From: a virus
Taxonomy: Duplodnaviria > Heunggongvirae > Uroviricota > Caudoviricetes
IMG/VR virus record: IMGVR_UViG_2681813004_000016
Span: 1-9,734 of that record
Direction: 5' to 3' (one strand)
DNA length: 9,734 bases
The notes under the pieces are model-generated. The model made no database searches, was not told the DNA's origin, and saw nothing but the letters and a program-made list of their open reading frames with translations. Position 1 is the first letter of the stretch. Each line of letters opens with the position of its first letter. Positions 1 through 7,220 of this stretch are shown piece by piece. A program made the position numbers and the translations under genes.

Positions 1-613
<613 letters not shown>

Positions 614-810
614 GCAGAAACTCCGTAATGAAGATGAAAAGCGCTCATAACACATCTGTCGGCCAGAAGGCGCGCCTCTGAGTTATCCTACGGACATACC
701 GGGAACAGTGTAATTTCCCGGCAGGAGCGAAAAATTTGAAAGGCGCATCTTACTCTTTTCGCTTTCAAAAAAAGAGTGGTCTTCGCGTTAACACACCGCC
801 CTGAGATGAA

Positions 811-1284
811 TTAGTGATGTTTTGGCTGCACCGCAACATACATTTCGATATCCCAGTACCCATCTTCCGCGCCATTGTTCAAGTAAACCTCGAAGCAGGG
901 CTTTGGTAACATTTCATAAGCACTGTCCTGCAAGAGGCTATTAAAGAACTGATACCAGGGTTTAGCAAAATCATCACCGACTACACGAGCCACCGCCACC
1001 GCATACTGACCACCTAAAATTTCTGTCAGAATGACGCCCTCACTGTTGTCGGGGAGCGTAAAGTTATTCGGCACCGTCACGACGGTGTCGCAGCGTAATT
1101 TTTCGGCGGGTGTTTCATCTGGATTGTCGTAATAGACAGCAACCCACTCCTTCGGCACAATATTTTTGTTATCTACCCACATCATCAACTGCTCAAAGCC
1201 TTTCTTTACCGTCTGTTCCCACGGGCCAACAAGATGGAAACCTGCAACGGTACGTTTATCTTCCTGCTTAATCTCGTAGTTCAT
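811..1284 (-). CDS. sbmC: DNA gyrase inhibitor SbmC (GyrI)
   Basis: 157-aa [27 protein letters not shown]...YVAVQPKHH matches E. coli SbmC in length and sequence as recalled. ATG start with GGAGG RBS; synteny yeeA-sbmC-dacD as in E. coli K-12. Confidence 0.95.
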
Positions 1285-1300
1285 GACGCCTCCACTAACA

Positions 1301-1316
1301 CTGTTTTTATATACAG
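1301..1316. promoter_or_regulatory. LexA (SOS) box CTGT-N8-ACAG immediately upstream of sbmC
   Basis: Sequence caCTGTttttatatACAGta at 1299-1318 fits the LexA consensus TACTGTATATATATACAGTA. It lies about 17 nt upstream of the sbmC start codon. sbmC is a known SOS-inducible gene. Confidence 0.7.
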
Positions 1317-1402
1317 TATAGTTGCAATATTAAAACCACAAGGAATGAGTGTTGATTATGCGAGCAGACTCGCACTCCTGCCAGTCTGCTGCAAAAGAAA
1401 GG

Positions 1403-2569
1403 TCAGGCCTTATGGTGGAAATAATCACTCAGGCGGGAAAACATGCTGCCTTCCCCGACAGATTCCAGGGTAACCAGCGGCCAGTGCGCCACCTGTTTAT
1501 CACGGTCGTAAAGTTCAATTTCCCCTACCCGCTGATGGGCGCTAATTGGCGCGGTGAGTTCTTTACCATCAAGGGTATATTTGGCTTTGATATGTGGAAT
1601 TTCGGCTTTCGGTAGCACCATCCAGAACTCTTGTTCCGTTCCCAGAGCGATATTTTCTTTATCACCATACCAGATGCGTTCCGTACCGACCTTTTTCCCA
1701 CGGTGCAAAATTTGCACCGTAGTAAAGTTTTGTTGCCCCCAACGCAGTAATTTTCTTGCCTCTTCCTCACGACCTTTTGCACTGTCAGCACCCATTACCA
1801 CTGCAATGAGGCGACGCTGCCCGTCTACAGCCGAAGCAATGAGATTAAACCCAGCACCAGAAGTATGACCCGTTTTCAGGCCGTCAACATTCATGGTTTT
1901 ATCCCACAATAACCCGTTACGGTTTTGCTGGGTGATACCGTTCCAGGTGAGGCTTTTCTCACTGTACATATGATAAAACTCGGGCTCGCCGTGGATGATA
2001 GCGCGAGAAAGCACAGCTAAATCATAAGCCGAGCTATGCTGGCCAGGTGCATCCAGACCATGCACTGTTTCAAAATGCGTATCCTTGAGATGCAGCTTCT
2101 CGGCATAGTTGTTCATCATTTCAACAAACTGCCGTTGCCCACCGGCAATATAGTCAGCCAGTGCAACACAAGCGTCATTTCCGGAATCCACAATTAAACC
2201 ACGGCTTAAATCACGTACCGATACGCGATCGCCCTCTTTCAAAAACATCAGTGAAGAACCGACAAACACCGGATTATCTTTCGCCCACGCATCACGCCCC
2301 ACGGTGACAATATCGTCCGGCGTAATGCGATGACTATCGATAGCGCGATCCACGACATAGCCCGTCATCAGCTTTGTCAGGCTGGCGGGATTGCGCTGTT
2401 GATGCTCATTACCCGCGGTGAGAATCTGACCGGTAGTGTAATCCATCAATACCCAGGACCCGGCATGAATCTCTGGAGGTTGAGGTGAAAAAGGGATGTT
2501 TTCCGCCGCAAAACCAGACGATAAATTAAAAACGAACAAAGAAGCAGCAATAATAAGACGGCGTTTCAA
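1403..2569 (-). CDS. dacD: D-alanyl-D-alanine carboxypeptidase DacD (PBP6b)
   Basis: ORF translation ...RRLIIAASLFVFNLSSGFAAENIPFSPQPP... with SxxK (ASLTK), SGN and KTG motifs, ending DYFHHKA. Matches E. coli DacD. The ORF track starts at TTG 2573-2575 (390 aa); the second TTG at 2567-2569 has GAGG 6-7 nt upstream and gives the 388-aa length recalled for DacD, so I call 2569 as the start. Confidence 0.93.
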   Translation of the reverse strand: MKRRLIIAASLFVFNLSSGFAAENIPFSPQPPEIHAGSWVLMDYTTGQILTAGNEHQQRNPASLTKLMTGYVVDRAIDSHRITPDDIVTVGRDAWAKDNPVFVGSSLMFLKEGDRVSVRDLSRGLIVDSGNDACVALADYIAGGQRQFVEMMNNYAEKLHLKDTHFETVHGLDAPGQHSSAYDLAVLSRAIIHGEPEFYHMYSEKSLTWNGITQQNRNGLLWDKTMNVDGLKTGHTSGAGFNLIASAVDGQRRLIAVVMGADSAKGREEEARKLLRWGQQNFTTVQILHRGKKVGTERIWYGDKENIALGTEQEFWMVLPKAEIPHIKAKYTLDGKELTAPISAHQRVGEIELYDRDKQVAHWPLVTLESVGEGSMFSRLSDYFHHKA

Positions 2570-2777
2570 CAGCAAACCCTCAGGTGTTTCAAATAGCTGT
2601 TCTTTTTACGGAAATACTTATGAACTGGCTGGAATAAAGTGCAAGAAAATGTGACTACTATCTCATTTTTATCTGACATGAACTGTTGCCACTCGCTGCC
2701 AAATTGTCGCGCTAAAGCTGATTAGCACGGTGATATTTGATACTCTGGCAGACAGCAGAAATAACGGATTTAACCTA

Positions 2778-2840
2778 ATGATGAATGACGGTAAGCAACA
2801 ATCTACCTTTTTGTTTCACGATTACGCGCAACACCCCTGA
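2778..2840 (+). pseudogene. sbcB: Exonuclease I (sbcB) 5' remnant: first 16 native codons, then foreign sequence and stop
   Basis: ATG ATG AAT GAC GGT AAG CAA CAA TCT ACC TTT TTG TTT CAC GAT TAC translates MMNDGKQQSTFLFHDY, the SbcB N-terminus as recalled (native continues ETFGTHPALDRP...). Here it continues AQHP then TGA at 2838-2840. Divergent from dacD as in K-12. Homology breaks at about 2825/2826. Confidence 0.75.
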
Positions 2841-2912
2841 GAACCGCCATGAACAAGGGTTTCATGATTTGTGATTTTAGTTTGGTACGCAATTTGGTAC
2901 ACAACACAATTT

Positions 2913-3158
2913 TCACTTCAGCGGGTAGTCATCAAACTCACCATAACGAGCAGCGTTAATGATGATTGGTTGCGAAACAGGAACGTGAGAACCGTCTTCG
3001 TTCTCTACATAAACCTGAATCTGGTTTTCAGGATTTACCGGGTCAGTGTCAATTTTTCCGATATAAATTTTGCCATTGGCTACGGCTTTAAAAGAACGCG
3101 CCATAGTGAAGAGTTGCGAAGGCATGCTTACCACAACATTGGCTGTAATGTCTGTCAT
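2913..3158 (-). pseudogene. P22-type tailspike (gp9) N-terminal head-binding-domain fragment, truncated after about 70 codons
   Basis: [70 protein letters not shown] matches the P22 tailspike N-terminus as recalled ([74 protein letters not shown]...). It then diverges to [11 protein letters not shown] and stops. Lies downstream of ant on the same strand, as in P22. Confidence 0.7.
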
Positions 3159-3216
3159 TTAATTTGCTCCAGATACAAGGAATCGCCGCAGCATGGCTAC
3201 GGTGAATTTTGGGCAT

Positions 3217-3239
3217 AAAAAAACCCAGCCGAAGCTGGG
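3217..3239 (-). terminator. Rho-independent terminator downstream of ant
   Basis: Plus strand reads aaaaaaa-CCCAGC-cgaa-GCTGGG; on the minus strand this is a GC stem with a 4-nt loop followed by UUUUUUU, sitting 20 nt after the ant stop codon. Confidence 0.75.
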
Positions 3240-3258
3240 TCGTTGCGTTGGTTATCTG

Positions 3259-4173
3259 TCAGTAGTTATGTACTGAAGGAGGTAATTCTTTATTCTTAAG
3301 TCTCATCCATGCGGAAAGATTCGTTGGTCCGTCTGGCTCATTGATATCAACATCTCGTGTGTGGTTTATTAAAACGTCTCTCGCCATTCCAATAACATAC
3401 GAGAACTCATGACCGTAGTCGTAGCATCTGCAGGAATAGTTCGATTGAATTTGCTTTAGCGCCGGATACAGTTCGCGGAATAATGCCTGTGAGCGGTTGG
3501 CATAATCCCATAACCATACAAGACTGTCTGTTTCTTTTGCGGAAAGCCCGTTGAGCTTCTTCTCTTGTTTGCCGATTAACTCTCCTTCAAGCGGAACGCG
3601 AGCAGCAAGTGACAGAGCTTCGGTAAACTGCTCCTCGCTGATTTCTTTATATGAACACCCAAAATGAGATTTCAGTGACGACCACATGGTGATCATCGCC
3701 TTCGCCTGTTTTTCTTTTGGCAGAGACTGACCGCGACTCATGACGAGTTGTTTAATGGCTTCCTGCTGCTCTTTGGTTATTTTGCCCGGCAACGCCTTTT
3801 TAGCTTTCGGTGTATTTCCGTAAGACCCCGTTTTACGAATGGATGGCAAAACTTCAGCTGTCACCCATTTGCGGAATTTGTGCGGGACTGAACCTTTATT
3901 GACGGCATCACGGCAGCGCAGAACCAATGTATACATACCTGATTCGCTCACAATGCTTAAATTCTGCTCACCGCCAAGGGTGTAACTTAAAGTTACTCCC
4001 TTCTCATCGTCATCAAGTGCAGTAAGCGCCTTGCGTGAGTTAGTCAGAGTTAAAGCATCACAAACATCTTTTGCTACAAACCACGGCGCACCGCACTTGT
4101 TGATGACGCGGATTTCACTGTCGCCGAATTTGAAGATGGTGAAATCGTTTTGTGCCTTTGCTATACTTTTCAT
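3259..4173 (-). CDS. ant: Phage antirepressor Ant (Bro-N/KilA-N-like N-terminal domain)
   Basis: 304-aa ORF. N-terminus [30 protein letters not shown] is a typical Bro-N-type antirepressor motif. Sits immediately downstream of an Arc-like gene and opposite a divergent Mnt-like gene, the P22 immI arrangement. Confidence 0.85.
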
Positions 4174-4246
4174 GTCAATATTTCCCGATCAGATTTGTTG
4201 ATGTAGAAGCCTCGCCAGTTCCCGCTGTCGGGGCTTCGTTATTTTT
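4174..4246 (+). ncRNA. Predicted sar-like antisense RNA covering the ant RBS and start region
   Basis: Candidate plus-strand promoter inside the ant 5' codons: -35 GTGAAA 4139-4144, 17-nt spacer, -10 TATACT 4162-4167, putting the start at about 4174. Plus-strand hairpin GAAGCC(4206-4211)/GGCTTC(4232-4237) with inner CCCG/CGGG stem, followed by TTATTTTT (4239-4246). Predicted RNA is about 70 nt and antisense to the ant RBS, as described for P22 sar. Confidence 0.4.
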
Positions 4247-4406
4247 AGAGAGCATTCCGCATTTTCTCCCGGTACTTCAACCACCAAGCAAGTCCCTGAA
4301 CCAACACTGAGTTTTCTGACATCCCCTCTTCCTTAGCGATGCGTTTCACCTCCTCCTTAAAACGGTACGGATACCGAAGAGTTGTCTTCACTTCATTCTT
4401 TTCCAT
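4245..4406 (-). CDS. arc: Arc-like ribbon-helix-helix repressor (53 aa)
   Basis: Not in the ORF track (under 60 aa). Minus strand ATG 4404-4406 to TAA 4245-4247 translates MEKNEVKTTLRYPYRFKEEVKRIAKEEGMSENSVLVQGLAWWLKYREKMRNAL. Same size and RHH pattern as P22 Arc (recalled ...PQFNLRWPREVLDLVRKVAEENGRSVNSEIYQRVMESF...). AGGAG RBS 7 nt upstream; directly upstream of ant. Confidence 0.7.
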   Translation of the reverse strand: MEKNEVKTTLRYPYRFKEEVKRIAKEEGMSENSVLVQGLAWWLKYREKMRNAL

Positions 4407-4427
4407 TGATCACTCCTTTTTACGTAA

Positions 4428-4489
4428 TGGCATTATGCCTTGAAAGCAATATGCCATCATTGAATATAAATAGCAATATGCCATCATTG
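4428..4489. promoter_or_regulatory. immI operator/promoter region: 11-bp palindrome plus two perfect 18-bp direct repeats between divergent arc-like and mnt-like genes
   Basis: Palindrome GGCATtATGCC at 4429-4439. Direct repeats AGCAATATGCCATCATTG at 4445-4462 and 4472-4489, 27 bp apart. The 7-mer ATGCCAT (reverse complement ATGGCAT) occurs three times. A candidate plus-strand promoter overlaps them (-35 TTGAAA 4440-4445, -10 TATAAA 4465-4470). Confidence 0.45.
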
Positions 4490-4508
4490 TTTTTTTTGAG
4501 GTGATGTT

Positions 4509-4829
4509 ATGGCTGAAAAGCAGGTTAAAGATTACGAAAAGTTTGTTGTGCGTTTCCCTGACGGGATGAGGGACGCGATTGCGGAGAGAGCCAAACGAAA
4601 CGGGCGCTCTATGAACTCAGAGATTGTGCAGATACTGGAAGATGCCTTGAATGCAGAAAATACTCTTGGGGAAATAGCAGACAAAATCAACAGCGTCTCG
4701 GTTCCGCTAAATGTTGATGCGCTAGTTCAACTTCAAGCCCAGGTTATCGCCATGCAAAAAGAAATACAGGAAAAGTTCAGAGAGCAGAACGAAAAGTTGA
4801 GAGAACTACTAAATAAAAAACCCACCTGA
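4509..4829 (+). CDS. mnt: Mnt-like ribbon-helix-helix repressor with C-terminal coiled coil (106 aa)
   Basis: N-terminus MAEKQVKDYEKFVVRFPDGMRDAIAERAKRNGRSMNSEIVQILEDAL carries the Arc/Mnt signature NGRSMNSE; C-terminal half is heptad-rich. GAGGTGA RBS upstream of ATG 4509. Divergent from arc-ant. Confidence 0.7.
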   Translation: MAEKQVKDYEKFVVRFPDGMRDAIAERAKRNGRSMNSEIVQILEDALNAENTLGEIADKINSVSVPLNVDALVQLQAQVIAMQKEIQEKFREQNEKLRELLNKKPT

Positions 4830-4836
4830 CGGTGGG
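4811..4836 (-). terminator. Rho-independent terminator downstream of tail gene L (overlaps the 3' end of the mnt-like gene)
   Basis: Plus strand aaataaaaaa-CCCACC-tgac-GGTGGG; on the minus strand the stem is followed by UUUUUUAUUU, 10 nt after the L stop codon (4846-4848). The mnt-like stop TGA (4827-4829) lies in the hairpin loop. Confidence 0.6.
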
Positions 4837-4845
4837 CATAATCCA

Positions 4846-5544
4846 TTACTGCGAAAGTTTGTTAATGGAAAGGAAGCCGCCAAAGTTGCCGACGTTATTG
4901 CGAAACTTACAGCCACTCAGGCATTTGCTGCATTTATCCTTCGTGATATCGGACGTTGGCTGGTCATATTCATCCGCGACAGCCGGACCGTGATAACCGC
5001 ACTCATCGCCGCGATAGGTCCAGGTGCAGGTGTTGGCCAGCATGATACGTCCCGGAAAAACAGCGCCATCTGTTTCCGTCGGCGTGGACAGTACAAAGGA
5101 GGCACTCACCGCGCTCAGTTCGCTGCACTGCTCGATGCGCCAGCGGCTGATCACCTCCTGCTCCGGATCGGCGTCACTGTTTCCGTTAACGAAGTTCACC
5201 GCATCCAGAAAACGGGCGTAAACCTTACGCCGGACCACCGTTCCGCCGACCAGACTCTGCATATCTTCCACCATACCGGTGACCATGCCGTGCAGGTTAG
5301 AAACCGTCAGTGTCGGACGGGCAGCACTGCCCTTGCCGTTCAGTTCAAATCCCGTCCCCTGAATGGGATACGCCTGATACTGTCGCCCCTGCCAGGTGAC
5401 CGGCTCACCTTTTTCGTTCTGCTCATTACAGAAAAAATAACGTTCTCCACCGACCTCTGTCAGGTCGATTTCCCAGAGCACCACGCTGGCAGACTGCTCC
5501 GCACGGGTGCATTCATTCAGTGTTTCCTGCCGGATATCCTGCAT
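4846..5544 (-). CDS. L: Lambda-type minor tail protein L
   Basis: 232-aa ORF MQDIRQETLNECTRAEQSASVVLWEIDLTEVGGERYFFCNEQNEKGEPVTWQGRQYQ...FGGFLSINKLSQ matches phage lambda gpL in sequence and length as recalled. Its start overlaps the M stop (ATGA). Confidence 0.95.
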   Translation of the reverse strand: MQDIRQETLNECTRAEQSASVVLWEIDLTEVGGERYFFCNEQNEKGEPVTWQGRQYQAYPIQGTGFELNGKGSAARPTLTVSNLHGMVTGMVEDMQSLVGGTVVRRKVYARFLDAVNFVNGNSDADPEQEVISRWRIEQCSELSAVSASFVLSTPTETDGAVFPGRIMLANTCTWTYRGDECGYHGPAVADEYDQPTSDITKDKCSKCLSGCKFRNNVGNFGGFLSINKLSQ

Positions 5545-5873
5545 CAGTTCACCACCTGTTTAAACTCTGCGCTGAACTCAACACGCAACATACTGACCTG
5601 CGACGACCATTTTGCGCAGGTCACCTTTATCTGCCTGTAACCATAAGGCGGCGTCCACAGAAAGGCCTTCCAGCCCCCGTGCTCAGCCAGAAACGACTCC
5701 AGCGCCGTGGCCTCCTCACGGGAGACAGACAGCGTCACGCTGTACGTTTTCAGGTCAGCGTTCAGCCCGGCAGGCGCACGCTGGGAATAGCCATCACCAA
5801 AGCGCACCTCCCTGACGGAAGGGGCCGATGTCACATCCATACCGGGTTTCACTTTCCAGCGGAAGGTTTTCAT
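5544..5873 (-). CDS. M: Lambda-type minor tail protein M
   Basis: 109-aa ORF MKTFRWKVKPGMDV...WTPPYGYRQIKVTCAKWSSQVSMLRVEFSAEFKQVVN matches lambda gpM as recalled; H-M-L order and overlaps as in lambda. Confidence 0.95.
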   Translation of the reverse strand: MKTFRWKVKPGMDVTSAPSVREVRFGDGYSQRAPAGLNADLKTYSVTLSVSREEATALESFLAEHGGWKAFLWTPPYGYRQIKVTCAKWSSQVSMLRVEFSAEFKQVVN

Positions 5874-6247
5874 CGTCCACCTCCGGAGAACAGGCCACCA
5901 TCACGCATCTGTGTCTGAATTTCATCACGGGCACCCTTGCGGGCCATGTCATACACCGCCTTCAGAGCAGCCGGACCTATCTGCCCGTTCGTGCCGTCGT
6001 TGTTAATCACCACATGGTTATTCTGCTCAAACGTCCCGGACGCCTGCGACCGGCTGTCTGCCATGCTGCCCGGTGTACCGACATAACCGCCGGTGGCATA
6101 GCCGCGCATCAGCCGGTAAAGATTCCCCACGCCAATCCGGCTGGTTGCCTCCTTCGTGAAGACAAACTCACCACGGTGAACAATCCCCGCTGGCTCATAT
6201 TTGCCGCCGGTTCCCGTAAATCCTCCGGTTGCAAAATGGAATTTCGC
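5870..6247 (-). pseudogene. H: Tape-measure protein H, C-terminal fragment (about 125 codons), 5'-truncated at the IS903 junction
   Basis: C-terminal translation ...GGFTGTGGKYEPAGIVHRGEFVFTKEATSRIGVGNLYRLMRGYATGGYVGTPG...MRDGGLFSGGGR matches the lambda gpH C-terminus as recalled. Upstream of about 6247 the frame reads IS903-derived sequence, so the first about 35 residues of the 160-aa track ORF are not H. Confidence 0.85.
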
Positions 6248-6779
6248 CGCAGACAACTTCATGTGTGTTGCTGTCAACAGCAAGATGCAACTTTCGCCAG
6301 ATACGACGGCGCTCTTTGCCGTGCTTTCTGACTTTCCATTCGCCTTCACCAAAGACCTTCAGCCCGGTGGAATCAATCACCAGGTGTGCGATTTCACCCC
6401 GGGTGGACGTTTTGAAACTGACATTAACCGACTTTGCCCGCTTACTGACACTGGTGTAATCCGGGCAGCGCAACGGAACGTTCATCAGGGCAAAAATGGA
6501 ATCAATAAAACCCTGCGCAGCCCGCAGGGTCAGCCGGAATACGCGTTTAATCACCAGAACGGTGGTGATGGCGAGATCAGAATAGCGCTGGGGCCTTCCT
6601 CGTGATGAAGGCGTTGCCGACTCATACCAGGCCTGAATCGCCTCATCATCCAGCCAGAAAGTGAGGGAGCCACGGTTGATGAGAGCTTTGTTGTAGGTGG
6701 ACCAGTTGGTGATTCTGAACTTTTGCTTTGCCACGGAATGGTCTGTGTTGTCGGGAGGATGCGTGATCTGATCCTTCAA
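6248..6779 (-). pseudogene. IS903-family transposase, N-terminal about 177 codons, 3'-truncated (track ORF 6195-6779 reads on into H-derived DNA)
   Basis: Transposase similarity runs from the TTG start at 6777-6779 to ...LAVDSNTHEVVC. The last 17 residues of the track ORF (GEIPFCNRRIYGNRRQI) are out-of-frame readthrough of tape-measure DNA. Confidence 0.85.
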
Positions 6780-6811
6780 CTCAGCAAAAGTTCGATTTAT
6801 TCAACAAAGCC
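6248..6811 (-). mobile_element. Truncated IS903-family insertion sequence (IS5 family): left inverted repeat plus 5' part of the transposase gene only
   Basis: Plus-strand 6793-6811 cgatttattcaacaaagcc is the reverse complement of the IS903 terminal inverted repeat GGCTTTGTTGAATAAATCG as recalled. The adjacent ORF encodes ...KQKFRITNWSTYNKALINRGSLTFWLDDEAIQAWYESATPSSRGRPQRYSDLAITTV..., the IS903/IS102 transposase N-terminus. Homology ends at about 6248, where lambda H sequence begins, so only about 564 bp of a roughly 1 kb IS remain. Confidence 0.9.
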
Positions 6812-7220
6812 CCTTAGAGCTAATTTCAGAACCACCAACACCCTCAATATAGTTTGATCTCCATGGTGACTCTTCGTGTGTCATGTTCCTCAGTTTCCAG
6901 GCAGAAAATTGCCCAAAAACATCCCAGACTTCTTCTAATAACTCTAACTGTTCTTCGCTGAATTTTTCAGCATCAAAAGACTCTGGAGAAGGGATAGCGC
7001 CATTACCATATTGTTTATAACGGCGATAAAGCTCAGGGACAACAGGGCCATGCATCCAAGCTTCCATCTTATTCTGAAAAAGAGGCTCGCCAAGCAACGC
7101 CAATGAAAAACCCTGAGCATAGTAAACAAGCTTTTGTAATTTTAAATTAGAGATTGTGTCACCGCTATCCTCGTCACACCGCGACAGGAAGTAGTCGGCG
7201 ACATCAAAACAAGTAAGCAT
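6801..7220 (-). CDS. Panacea / SocA-like (DUF4065) antitoxin-domain protein, 3' end clipped by the IS903 insertion
   Basis: MLTCFDVADYFLSRCDEDSGDTISNLKLQKLVYYAQGFSLALLGEPLFQNKMEAWMHGPVVPELYRRYKQYG... fits the SocA/Panacea pattern (hLKLQKLLYhAQGh...GEPLh...hEAWhHGPVhP.LY). Likely start is ATG 7218-7220 (GGAGG 7 nt upstream); the track used GTG at 7226. The last two codons and the stop (6801-6809) are IS903 sequence, so the native C-terminus is lost. Confidence 0.6.
   Translation of the reverse strand: MLTCFDVADYFLSRCDEDSGDTISNLKLQKLVYYAQGFSLALLGEPLFQNKMEAWMHGPVVPELYRRYKQYGNGAIPSPESFDAEKFSEEQLELLEEVWDVFGQFSAWKLRNMTHEESPWRSNYIEGVGGSEISSKGLC

Follow-up and report, generated by a model that had tools for sequence, protein, structure and literature searches.

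The DNA analysed here, a 9,734-nt stretch of a tailed virus of the class Caudoviricetes (positions 1 to 9,734 of IMG/VR record IMGVR_UViG_2681813004_000016; hereafter the window), carries a gene of the Panacea (DUF4065) family, panA′, that is cut short by the end of an insertion sequence (IS). The gene is a 139-codon open reading frame (ORF) on the minus strand at 6801–7220, with its ATG at 7220–7218, its TGA at 6803–6801, and a GGAGG Shine-Dalgarno sequence at 7232–7228, 7 nt 5′ of the ATG. The GTG at 7226 given as the start in the ORF listing was rejected, as it crowds the Shine-Dalgarno sequence and all homologues start with MLTC. The elements that make up the gene and its immediate surroundings, in the direction of panA′, are as follows.

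7221–7594, minus strand: non-coding region travelling with the panA–panT (panAT) cassette, 99% identical to phages Emek and phiv205-1
6812–7220, minus strand: native part of panA, codons 1–136 and the first base of codon 137, recognised by PF13274 and by identity to WP_000954425.1
6801–6811, minus strand: IS-derived tail of the ORF (GG of Gly137, Leu138, Cys139 and TGA), from junction comparison with two intact E. coli loci
6250–6811, minus strand: IS903-group (IS5 family) fragment of 562 bp with one terminal inverted repeat, recognised by identity to plasmid-borne IS copies and by Pfam

The PF13274 SocA_Panacea profile matched the window protein with 87.3 bits (E = 1.7e-24) over profile positions 1–112 of 113, far above the gathering cut-off of 25.7 bits, which places it in the Panacea family, as the initial annotation had proposed. 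The Pfam-defined part, residues 28–120, is kept whole, and the protein is a standalone Panacea domain without an N-terminal accessory domain. It shares this domain with SocA of the Caulobacter crescentus SocA–SocB pair, after which the Pfam family is named; however, it scored 71 bits with the NCBIfam SocA equivalog, for which the cut-off is 190, and is thus not a SocA orthologue. In the Caulobacter pair, SocA serves SocB as its ClpXP adaptor. Residues 1–136 of the window protein are 100% identical to those of the intact 147-aa protein WP_000954425.1 from an E. coli locus, with one difference from WP_089622957.1 and two from YP_006560565.1 of phage Emek.

The IS repeat ends at 6811 and homology to the intact loci starts exactly at 6812, so the same-strand slot downstream of panA′ is indeed filled by the IS903 end, as had been suggested from the sequence. 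The accompanying claim that this end supplies the last two codons and the stop was essentially right; it also provides 2 nt of the Gly137 codon. As a result, the 11-residue native tail EMAEYFATRIN (residues 137–147) is replaced by Gly-Leu-Cys. An AlphaFold2 model of an intact PanA homologue (95% identical; mean predicted local distance difference test score, pLDDT, 92.1) contains seven helices and a β-hairpin (α1–α7, β1–β2), which is the arrangement described for the Panacea core (Ernits et al. 2023, PMC10440598). In this model the last helix, α7, comprises residues 135–146. Native sequence in the window protein stops at residue 136, and the full seven-helix core is thus incomplete. The clipped segment holds a conserved M..EYF.T motif in 38 full-length homologues, at least 90% of which have F142. 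Moreover, among the best 120 relatives in the database, PanA proteins are 143–157 aa long, except for one partial entry. A Foldseek comparison of the PanA model with the PDB gave nothing below E = 0.25 and hence no solved template for the packing of α7; a PDB sequence search with the PanA profile returned a designed helix bundle as its sole match, which was discarded as spurious. On the basis of the model, we infer that the fold of the truncated protein is destabilised or at least altered.

The element responsible carries the 18-bp inverted repeat GGCTTTGTTGAATAAATC at 6794–6811 on the minus strand, which we take to be the IS903 terminal inverted repeat. The 562-bp fragment matches IS5-family elements from plasmids of Klebsiella at 99.7% identity and encodes the first ~174 transposase codons, that is, the N-terminal part of a DDE transposase; Pfam DDE_Tnp_1_5 was matched in full and DDE_Tnp_1 only at profile positions 4–51 of 200. 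The terminal inverted repeat and the DDE transposase together assign it to the IS903 group. In a complete IS, a second inverted repeat and a 9-bp target duplication would be expected; here the element amounts to 562 bp only, its transposase breaks off after ~174 codons, and no second inverted repeat was found in the window. The fragment is thus a dead half-element. The earlier identification of an IS903 end at this position stands, with the correction that it belongs to a fragment joined internally to a tape-measure gene. In some plasmid matches, similarity extends 9–15 nt past the IS end, which we regard as an imperfect chance extension and not as a common flank.

Intact relatives of the locus revealed what the window has lost. 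In intact E. coli prophage loci, the 147-aa PanA gene is followed after a 4-nt gap by a gene for a 139-aa partner, PanT, and in phage Emek the two genes overlap by annotation. The cassette is present in 48 of 5,426 complete E. coli genomes, every one of which carries both genes. A PF13274 gene also lies immediately 5′ of a PanT-family gene, with gaps of 4–35 nt, in all five distant loci compared, which have unrelated contexts:

Aeromonas: in a P2-like prophage
Solidesulfovibrio: beside a P22-type portal gene
Vibrio cholerae: flanked by acetyltransferase and glyoxalase genes
A cyanobacterium: beside a type I restriction subunit gene (HsdR)
A metagenome-assembled genome: beside an integrase gene

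The expectation that such genes normally form a two-gene operon was thus borne out, and the possibility that panA′ is natively monocistronic and full length is contradicted by the bicistronic arrangement in 48/48 E. coli genomes and 5/5 distant loci. Intact relatives have the partner gene within 100 nt of panA, whereas the window has the IS fragment there. In Vibrio cholerae, the T1-type panAT pair (for the T1 label, see below) sits among small cassette-like genes (1–335 and 3061–3483 of the locus); the cyanobacterial pair lies at 1480–3976 of its locus. Judged from these gene contexts, the location beside HsdR or among cassette-like genes would fit defence islands or an integron-like array. 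In P22-like phages, the cassette is flanked by hkcB/gene 16 on one side and by the immI (mnt-arc-ant) region on the other. The cargo of this slot differs: HK620 has hkcC there, and P22 presumably carries the exclusion gene sieA.

The intact pair has been published. Kurata et al. (2022, PMC8832971; Dataset S1/Table S1) paired PanA WP_089622957.1 with PanT WP_077635758.1 from E. coli MOD1-EC5558, describing it as toxin cluster T1, predicted 'mRNase', antitoxin first, with a 20-nt overlap and phage-associated; the Emek pair YP_006560565.1/YP_006560566.1 is also included. The T1 PanAT of MOD1-EC5558 and Emek has the same gene as panA′, the same upstream region and the same position in P22-like phages, whereas residues 137–147 and the whole of panT are gone from the window. 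The T1 PanTs from E. coli MOD1 and Emek are recorded as 'not toxic' when expressed from pBAD33, with neutralisation given as n/a (PMC8832971, Table S1); 'antitoxin' is therefore a family label only for the window protein. The published overlaps of −20 and −62 nt mean that the tested PanTs, annotated at 147 and 161 aa, began 8 (E. coli) and 22 (Emek) codons 5′ of the family-consensus ATG (139 aa, starting MARKSKR), in these stretches:

WP_000954425.1 locus, 5961–5985: upstream PanT start stretch
Emek locus, 2962–3027: upstream PanT start stretch

Such upstream-set starts may or may not be the cause of the 'not toxic' result. The T1 PanAT accessions were also sought in the supplements of the NetFlax paper and were not there.

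The PanT family is large. A word-indexed search found 182 relatives, and a profile search of 1.84 billion representatives clustered at 50% identity found 1,561 representatives at E ≤ 0.001; among the best 150 of these, nearly all are 130–146 aa long. The predicted structure of the lost PanT has helices packed on an antiparallel β-sheet, as in the RelE-type fold, preceded by a disordered basic N-terminal tail of some 40 extra residues. The partner is thus predicted to have a RelE/YoeB/HigB-like fold, with the link at the fold level only. At the sequence level, PanT does not belong to the curated RelE, YoeB, HigB or ParE families: the 139-aa protein matched no Pfam family at E ≤ 1, RelE-type families included, a PDB sequence search with the PanT profile gave nothing, and a comparison by hhalign between the PanT alignment and YoeB of E. 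coli gave a probability of 0.3 and showed no relationship. The only matches, both weak, were to PADLOC NsnC (5.9e-6) and NCBIfam MAG6450_fam (0.023), the former reflecting sequence similarity to the Menshen NsnC effector, which has a PB-BECR1 domain. In 139-aa numbering, the PanT alignment shows no variation at E83, R109 and D131, and at least 90% of its sequences keep H78, R120, Y137 and the C-terminal H139; this pattern appears compatible with a RelE-type active site. PanT differs from the RelE, YoeB, HigB and YafQ toxins in carrying the disordered tail and in pairing with a Panacea protein instead of RelB, YefM or HigA; nor is this partner, with its predicted RelE-like fold, the SocB of Caulobacter crescentus.

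The cassette, together with its 375-bp region upstream of panA, recurs at 99% identity in two phages, vB_SemP_Emek of Salmonella and phiv205-1 of Escherichia, up to window position ~7597; homology to HK620 starts at ~7564. The conserved region 5′ of panA contains a direct repeat, TCACATTT[A/C]CTGCA, at 7358–7371 and 7401–7414, 43 bp apart. Because PanA has no DNA-binding domain of its own, this repeat is considered a possible operator. A scan of the panA strand with the sigma-70 consensus found no promoter; a possible extended −10 element, TGTTATAGT, was read by eye at 7290–7282 on the minus strand.

Beyond this region lie two ORFs of the P22-like phage backbone, both of which had been proposed as candidates for the partner.

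7595–7924, plus strand: hkcB homologue of 109 aa, P22-like phage backbone, 106 of 109 residues identical to HK620 hkcB
7925–8278, minus strand: C-terminal remnant of a P22 gp16-type DNA-transfer (ejection) protein, with a Pfam Phage_P22_gp16 match

By eye, the first appears hydrophobic near its N-terminus and coiled-coil-like thereafter. The gp16 gene is full length (2121 nt) in the WP_089622957.1 locus and is annotated as a partial DNA transfer protein or pseudogene in the WP_000954425.1 locus. Further on, a gene of the type III secretion effector family NleG occupies 8386–9033 (Pfam E = 5.8e-38), with the gp16 remnant on one side and a lambdoid tail-fibre C-terminal gene on the other; its presence suggests that a type III secretion system may be encoded by the source strain, as in strains of the enteropathogenic and enterohaemorrhagic E. 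coli (EPEC/EHEC) type.

On the other side of panA′, the interior of the IS is joined to lambdoid tail genes.

5870–6252, minus strand: C-terminal part of H, a lambda-like tail tape-measure gene, fused with the IS interior, from alignment with an O103:H2 lambdoid prophage
5544–5873: tail gene M, following the H fragment
4846–5544: tail gene L, following M

The H/IS fusion at ~6250–6252 runs through a shared 3-nt CAG. Window positions 4600–6252 align in one piece with the O103:H2 lambdoid prophage (Arc-family gene, L, M and tape measure), and an ant-arc-mnt (immI-like) block at 3259–4829 adjoins tail gene L. In EHEC-type lambdoid prophages, where the run from tape measure through M and L to an Arc/Mnt-type gene is contiguous, L and K are separated by an mnt-arc-ant insert; in the O103:H2 prophage it occupies 7636–9230 of the compared locus. 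As judged from these alignments, such a P22-style antirepressor insert in siphovirus-type prophages would give homology for recombination with P22-like remnants. Compared with the WP_000954425.1 locus, the window has the lambdoid segment and half of the IS, between mnt and panA, in place of the remainder of panA, the panT gene and the regulator genes next to it; the locus needs at least two events, namely insertion into codon 137 and an illegitimate join inside the IS. Of a P22-type tailspike, nothing but the 81-aa N-terminal head-binding domain is left, at 2913–3158 beside dacD. The tailspike is full length in the WP_089622957.1 locus, with an integrase gene (intS) beyond it, and the P22-like prophage is therefore truncated at this end as well. 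Rfam (at gathering thresholds) and tRNA scans of the whole window gave no match.

Taken together, we consider it highly probable that panA′ is the decayed remnant of a T1 panA–panT cassette of P22-like phages, in which an IS clipped panA and from which panT has gone. The T1 pair would be a moron of these phages, housed in the variable slot that separates gene 16/hkcB from immI, with the gene for the 139-aa PanT 4 nt 3′ of that for the 147-aa PanA and probably translationally coupled to it. PanT would act as a putative mRNA endonuclease through its RelE/YoeB/HigB-like domain, and PanA would be expected to keep PanT inactive through direct binding; neutralisation of a toxin by a standalone Panacea domain through direct contact has been shown (Ernits et al. 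2023, PMC10440598). An IS903-group element would then have inserted in codon 137 of panA, and further rearrangement, in an order that we infer, would have deleted the remainder of panA, the whole of panT and one half of the IS. What would remain is PanA 1–136 plus Gly-Leu-Cys, lacking almost all of α7 and its partner. The truncated PanA is most likely an inert or crippled leftover, and transcription of panA′ may persist, since the region 5′ of it is intact. Several points weigh against this account. The window is the whole of a 9.7-kb draft-assembly contig, and adjacency across the 562-bp repeat could be mis-assembled. The Pfam-defined domain is whole, so some PanA function could survive. Finally, over-expression of the T1 partner in E. 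coli had no toxic effect, which leaves the toxin–antitoxin mechanism of the intact pair putative.

The suggestion that the original partner was deleted holds, in that intact loci have it and the window does not; the alternative raised with it, that the partner is one of the adjacent small membrane proteins, fails, as these ORFs are the hkcB homologue and the gp16 remnant of the phage backbone. The former does superficially resemble some of the membrane PanTs of Kurata et al., and no Pfam family above threshold was found for it. However, it is 97% identical to the hkcB of HK620, a phage without PanA, and is divergent from panA′ at a distance of 374 bp, and the latter is the tail end of gp16. 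Intact loci hold both ORFs together with the real partner, and panAT loci of other genera have neither, so that it is scarcely credible that either of them is the partner of PanA. It is also unlikely that the tape-measure fragment stands beside the clipped panA through an assembly artefact joining two loci via common IS903 sequence. Such an artefact would be in keeping with the window being an entire short contig of a draft assembly, with the abundance of IS903-group copies in Enterobacteriaceae, and with the fact that the H′–IS′–panA′ arrangement was seen in no complete E. coli genome; the exact truncated PanA is on record only on contig AOTC01000257.1 (draft assembly GCA_001447405.1), which is the window itself. 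The H/IS junction, however, lies inside the IS with only 3 nt shared, unlike a repeat-collapse join. Even on a chimeric contig the truncation would stand, because the junction between the IS end and panA is unique sequence.

Two further readings concern function. The clipped PanA could be a working orphan that is expressed from a promoter of its own and neutralises the T1 PanTs of related P22-like phages or of the genome, serving as an anti-addiction or anti-defence factor. Its upstream region and ribosome-binding site are intact and identical to those of functional phages, the Pfam core (residues 28–120) is kept, and counter-defence orphan antitoxins have been documented (PMC11257639). If the protein were stable and bound T1 PanT, it would protect the strain against PanT-armed P22-like phages and prophages. 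Nevertheless, we regard this as very unlikely: almost all of the last core helix, with the conserved EYF motif, is gone, the allele is confined to one contig with no sign of spread or selection, the surrounding prophage is heavily degraded, and a cognate partner that was not toxic in the published assay leaves little to neutralise. More plausible, if still doubtful, is the idea that the intact T1 pair responds to a trigger and serves in phage defence or exclusion, with PanA as the sensor and PanT as an infection-activated RNase; the window would then retain a dead sensor half. The cassette occupies the slot of HK620 hkcC, presumably also that of P22 sieA, and PanT is similar in sequence to the Menshen NsnC RNase effector. 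PanT was, moreover, not toxic in the two versions tested, and a sensory role has been proposed for the Panacea domain (Ernits et al., PMC10440598). On the other hand, the defence role of the T1 pair is putative, and the non-toxicity may be an artefact of constructs begun 8 and 22 codons 5′ of the family-consensus start.

Decay of a T1 panAT cassette, the reading that we favour, describes an event of low novelty, and the system itself is not new, the intact T1 pair being already catalogued. Orphaned or decayed toxin–antitoxin genes are commonplace. Lone antitoxin-family genes left after toxin loss via mobile elements, like that in the window, are widely reported in enterobacteria; the window differs from the usual orphan antitoxins in that its antitoxin gene has itself lost an end and the allele occurs in one assembly only. 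The locus is thus a single-strain decay product within a patchwork of prophage remnants, in line with ordinary prophage decay. It nonetheless offers a clean case of a toxin–antitoxin-like cassette being dismantled, with the putative toxin lost and the antitoxin clipped. For the large T1 PanT family, the comparison yields two testable points, namely the predicted RelE-like fold with similarity to NsnC, and the upstream-set starts of the 'not toxic' constructs.
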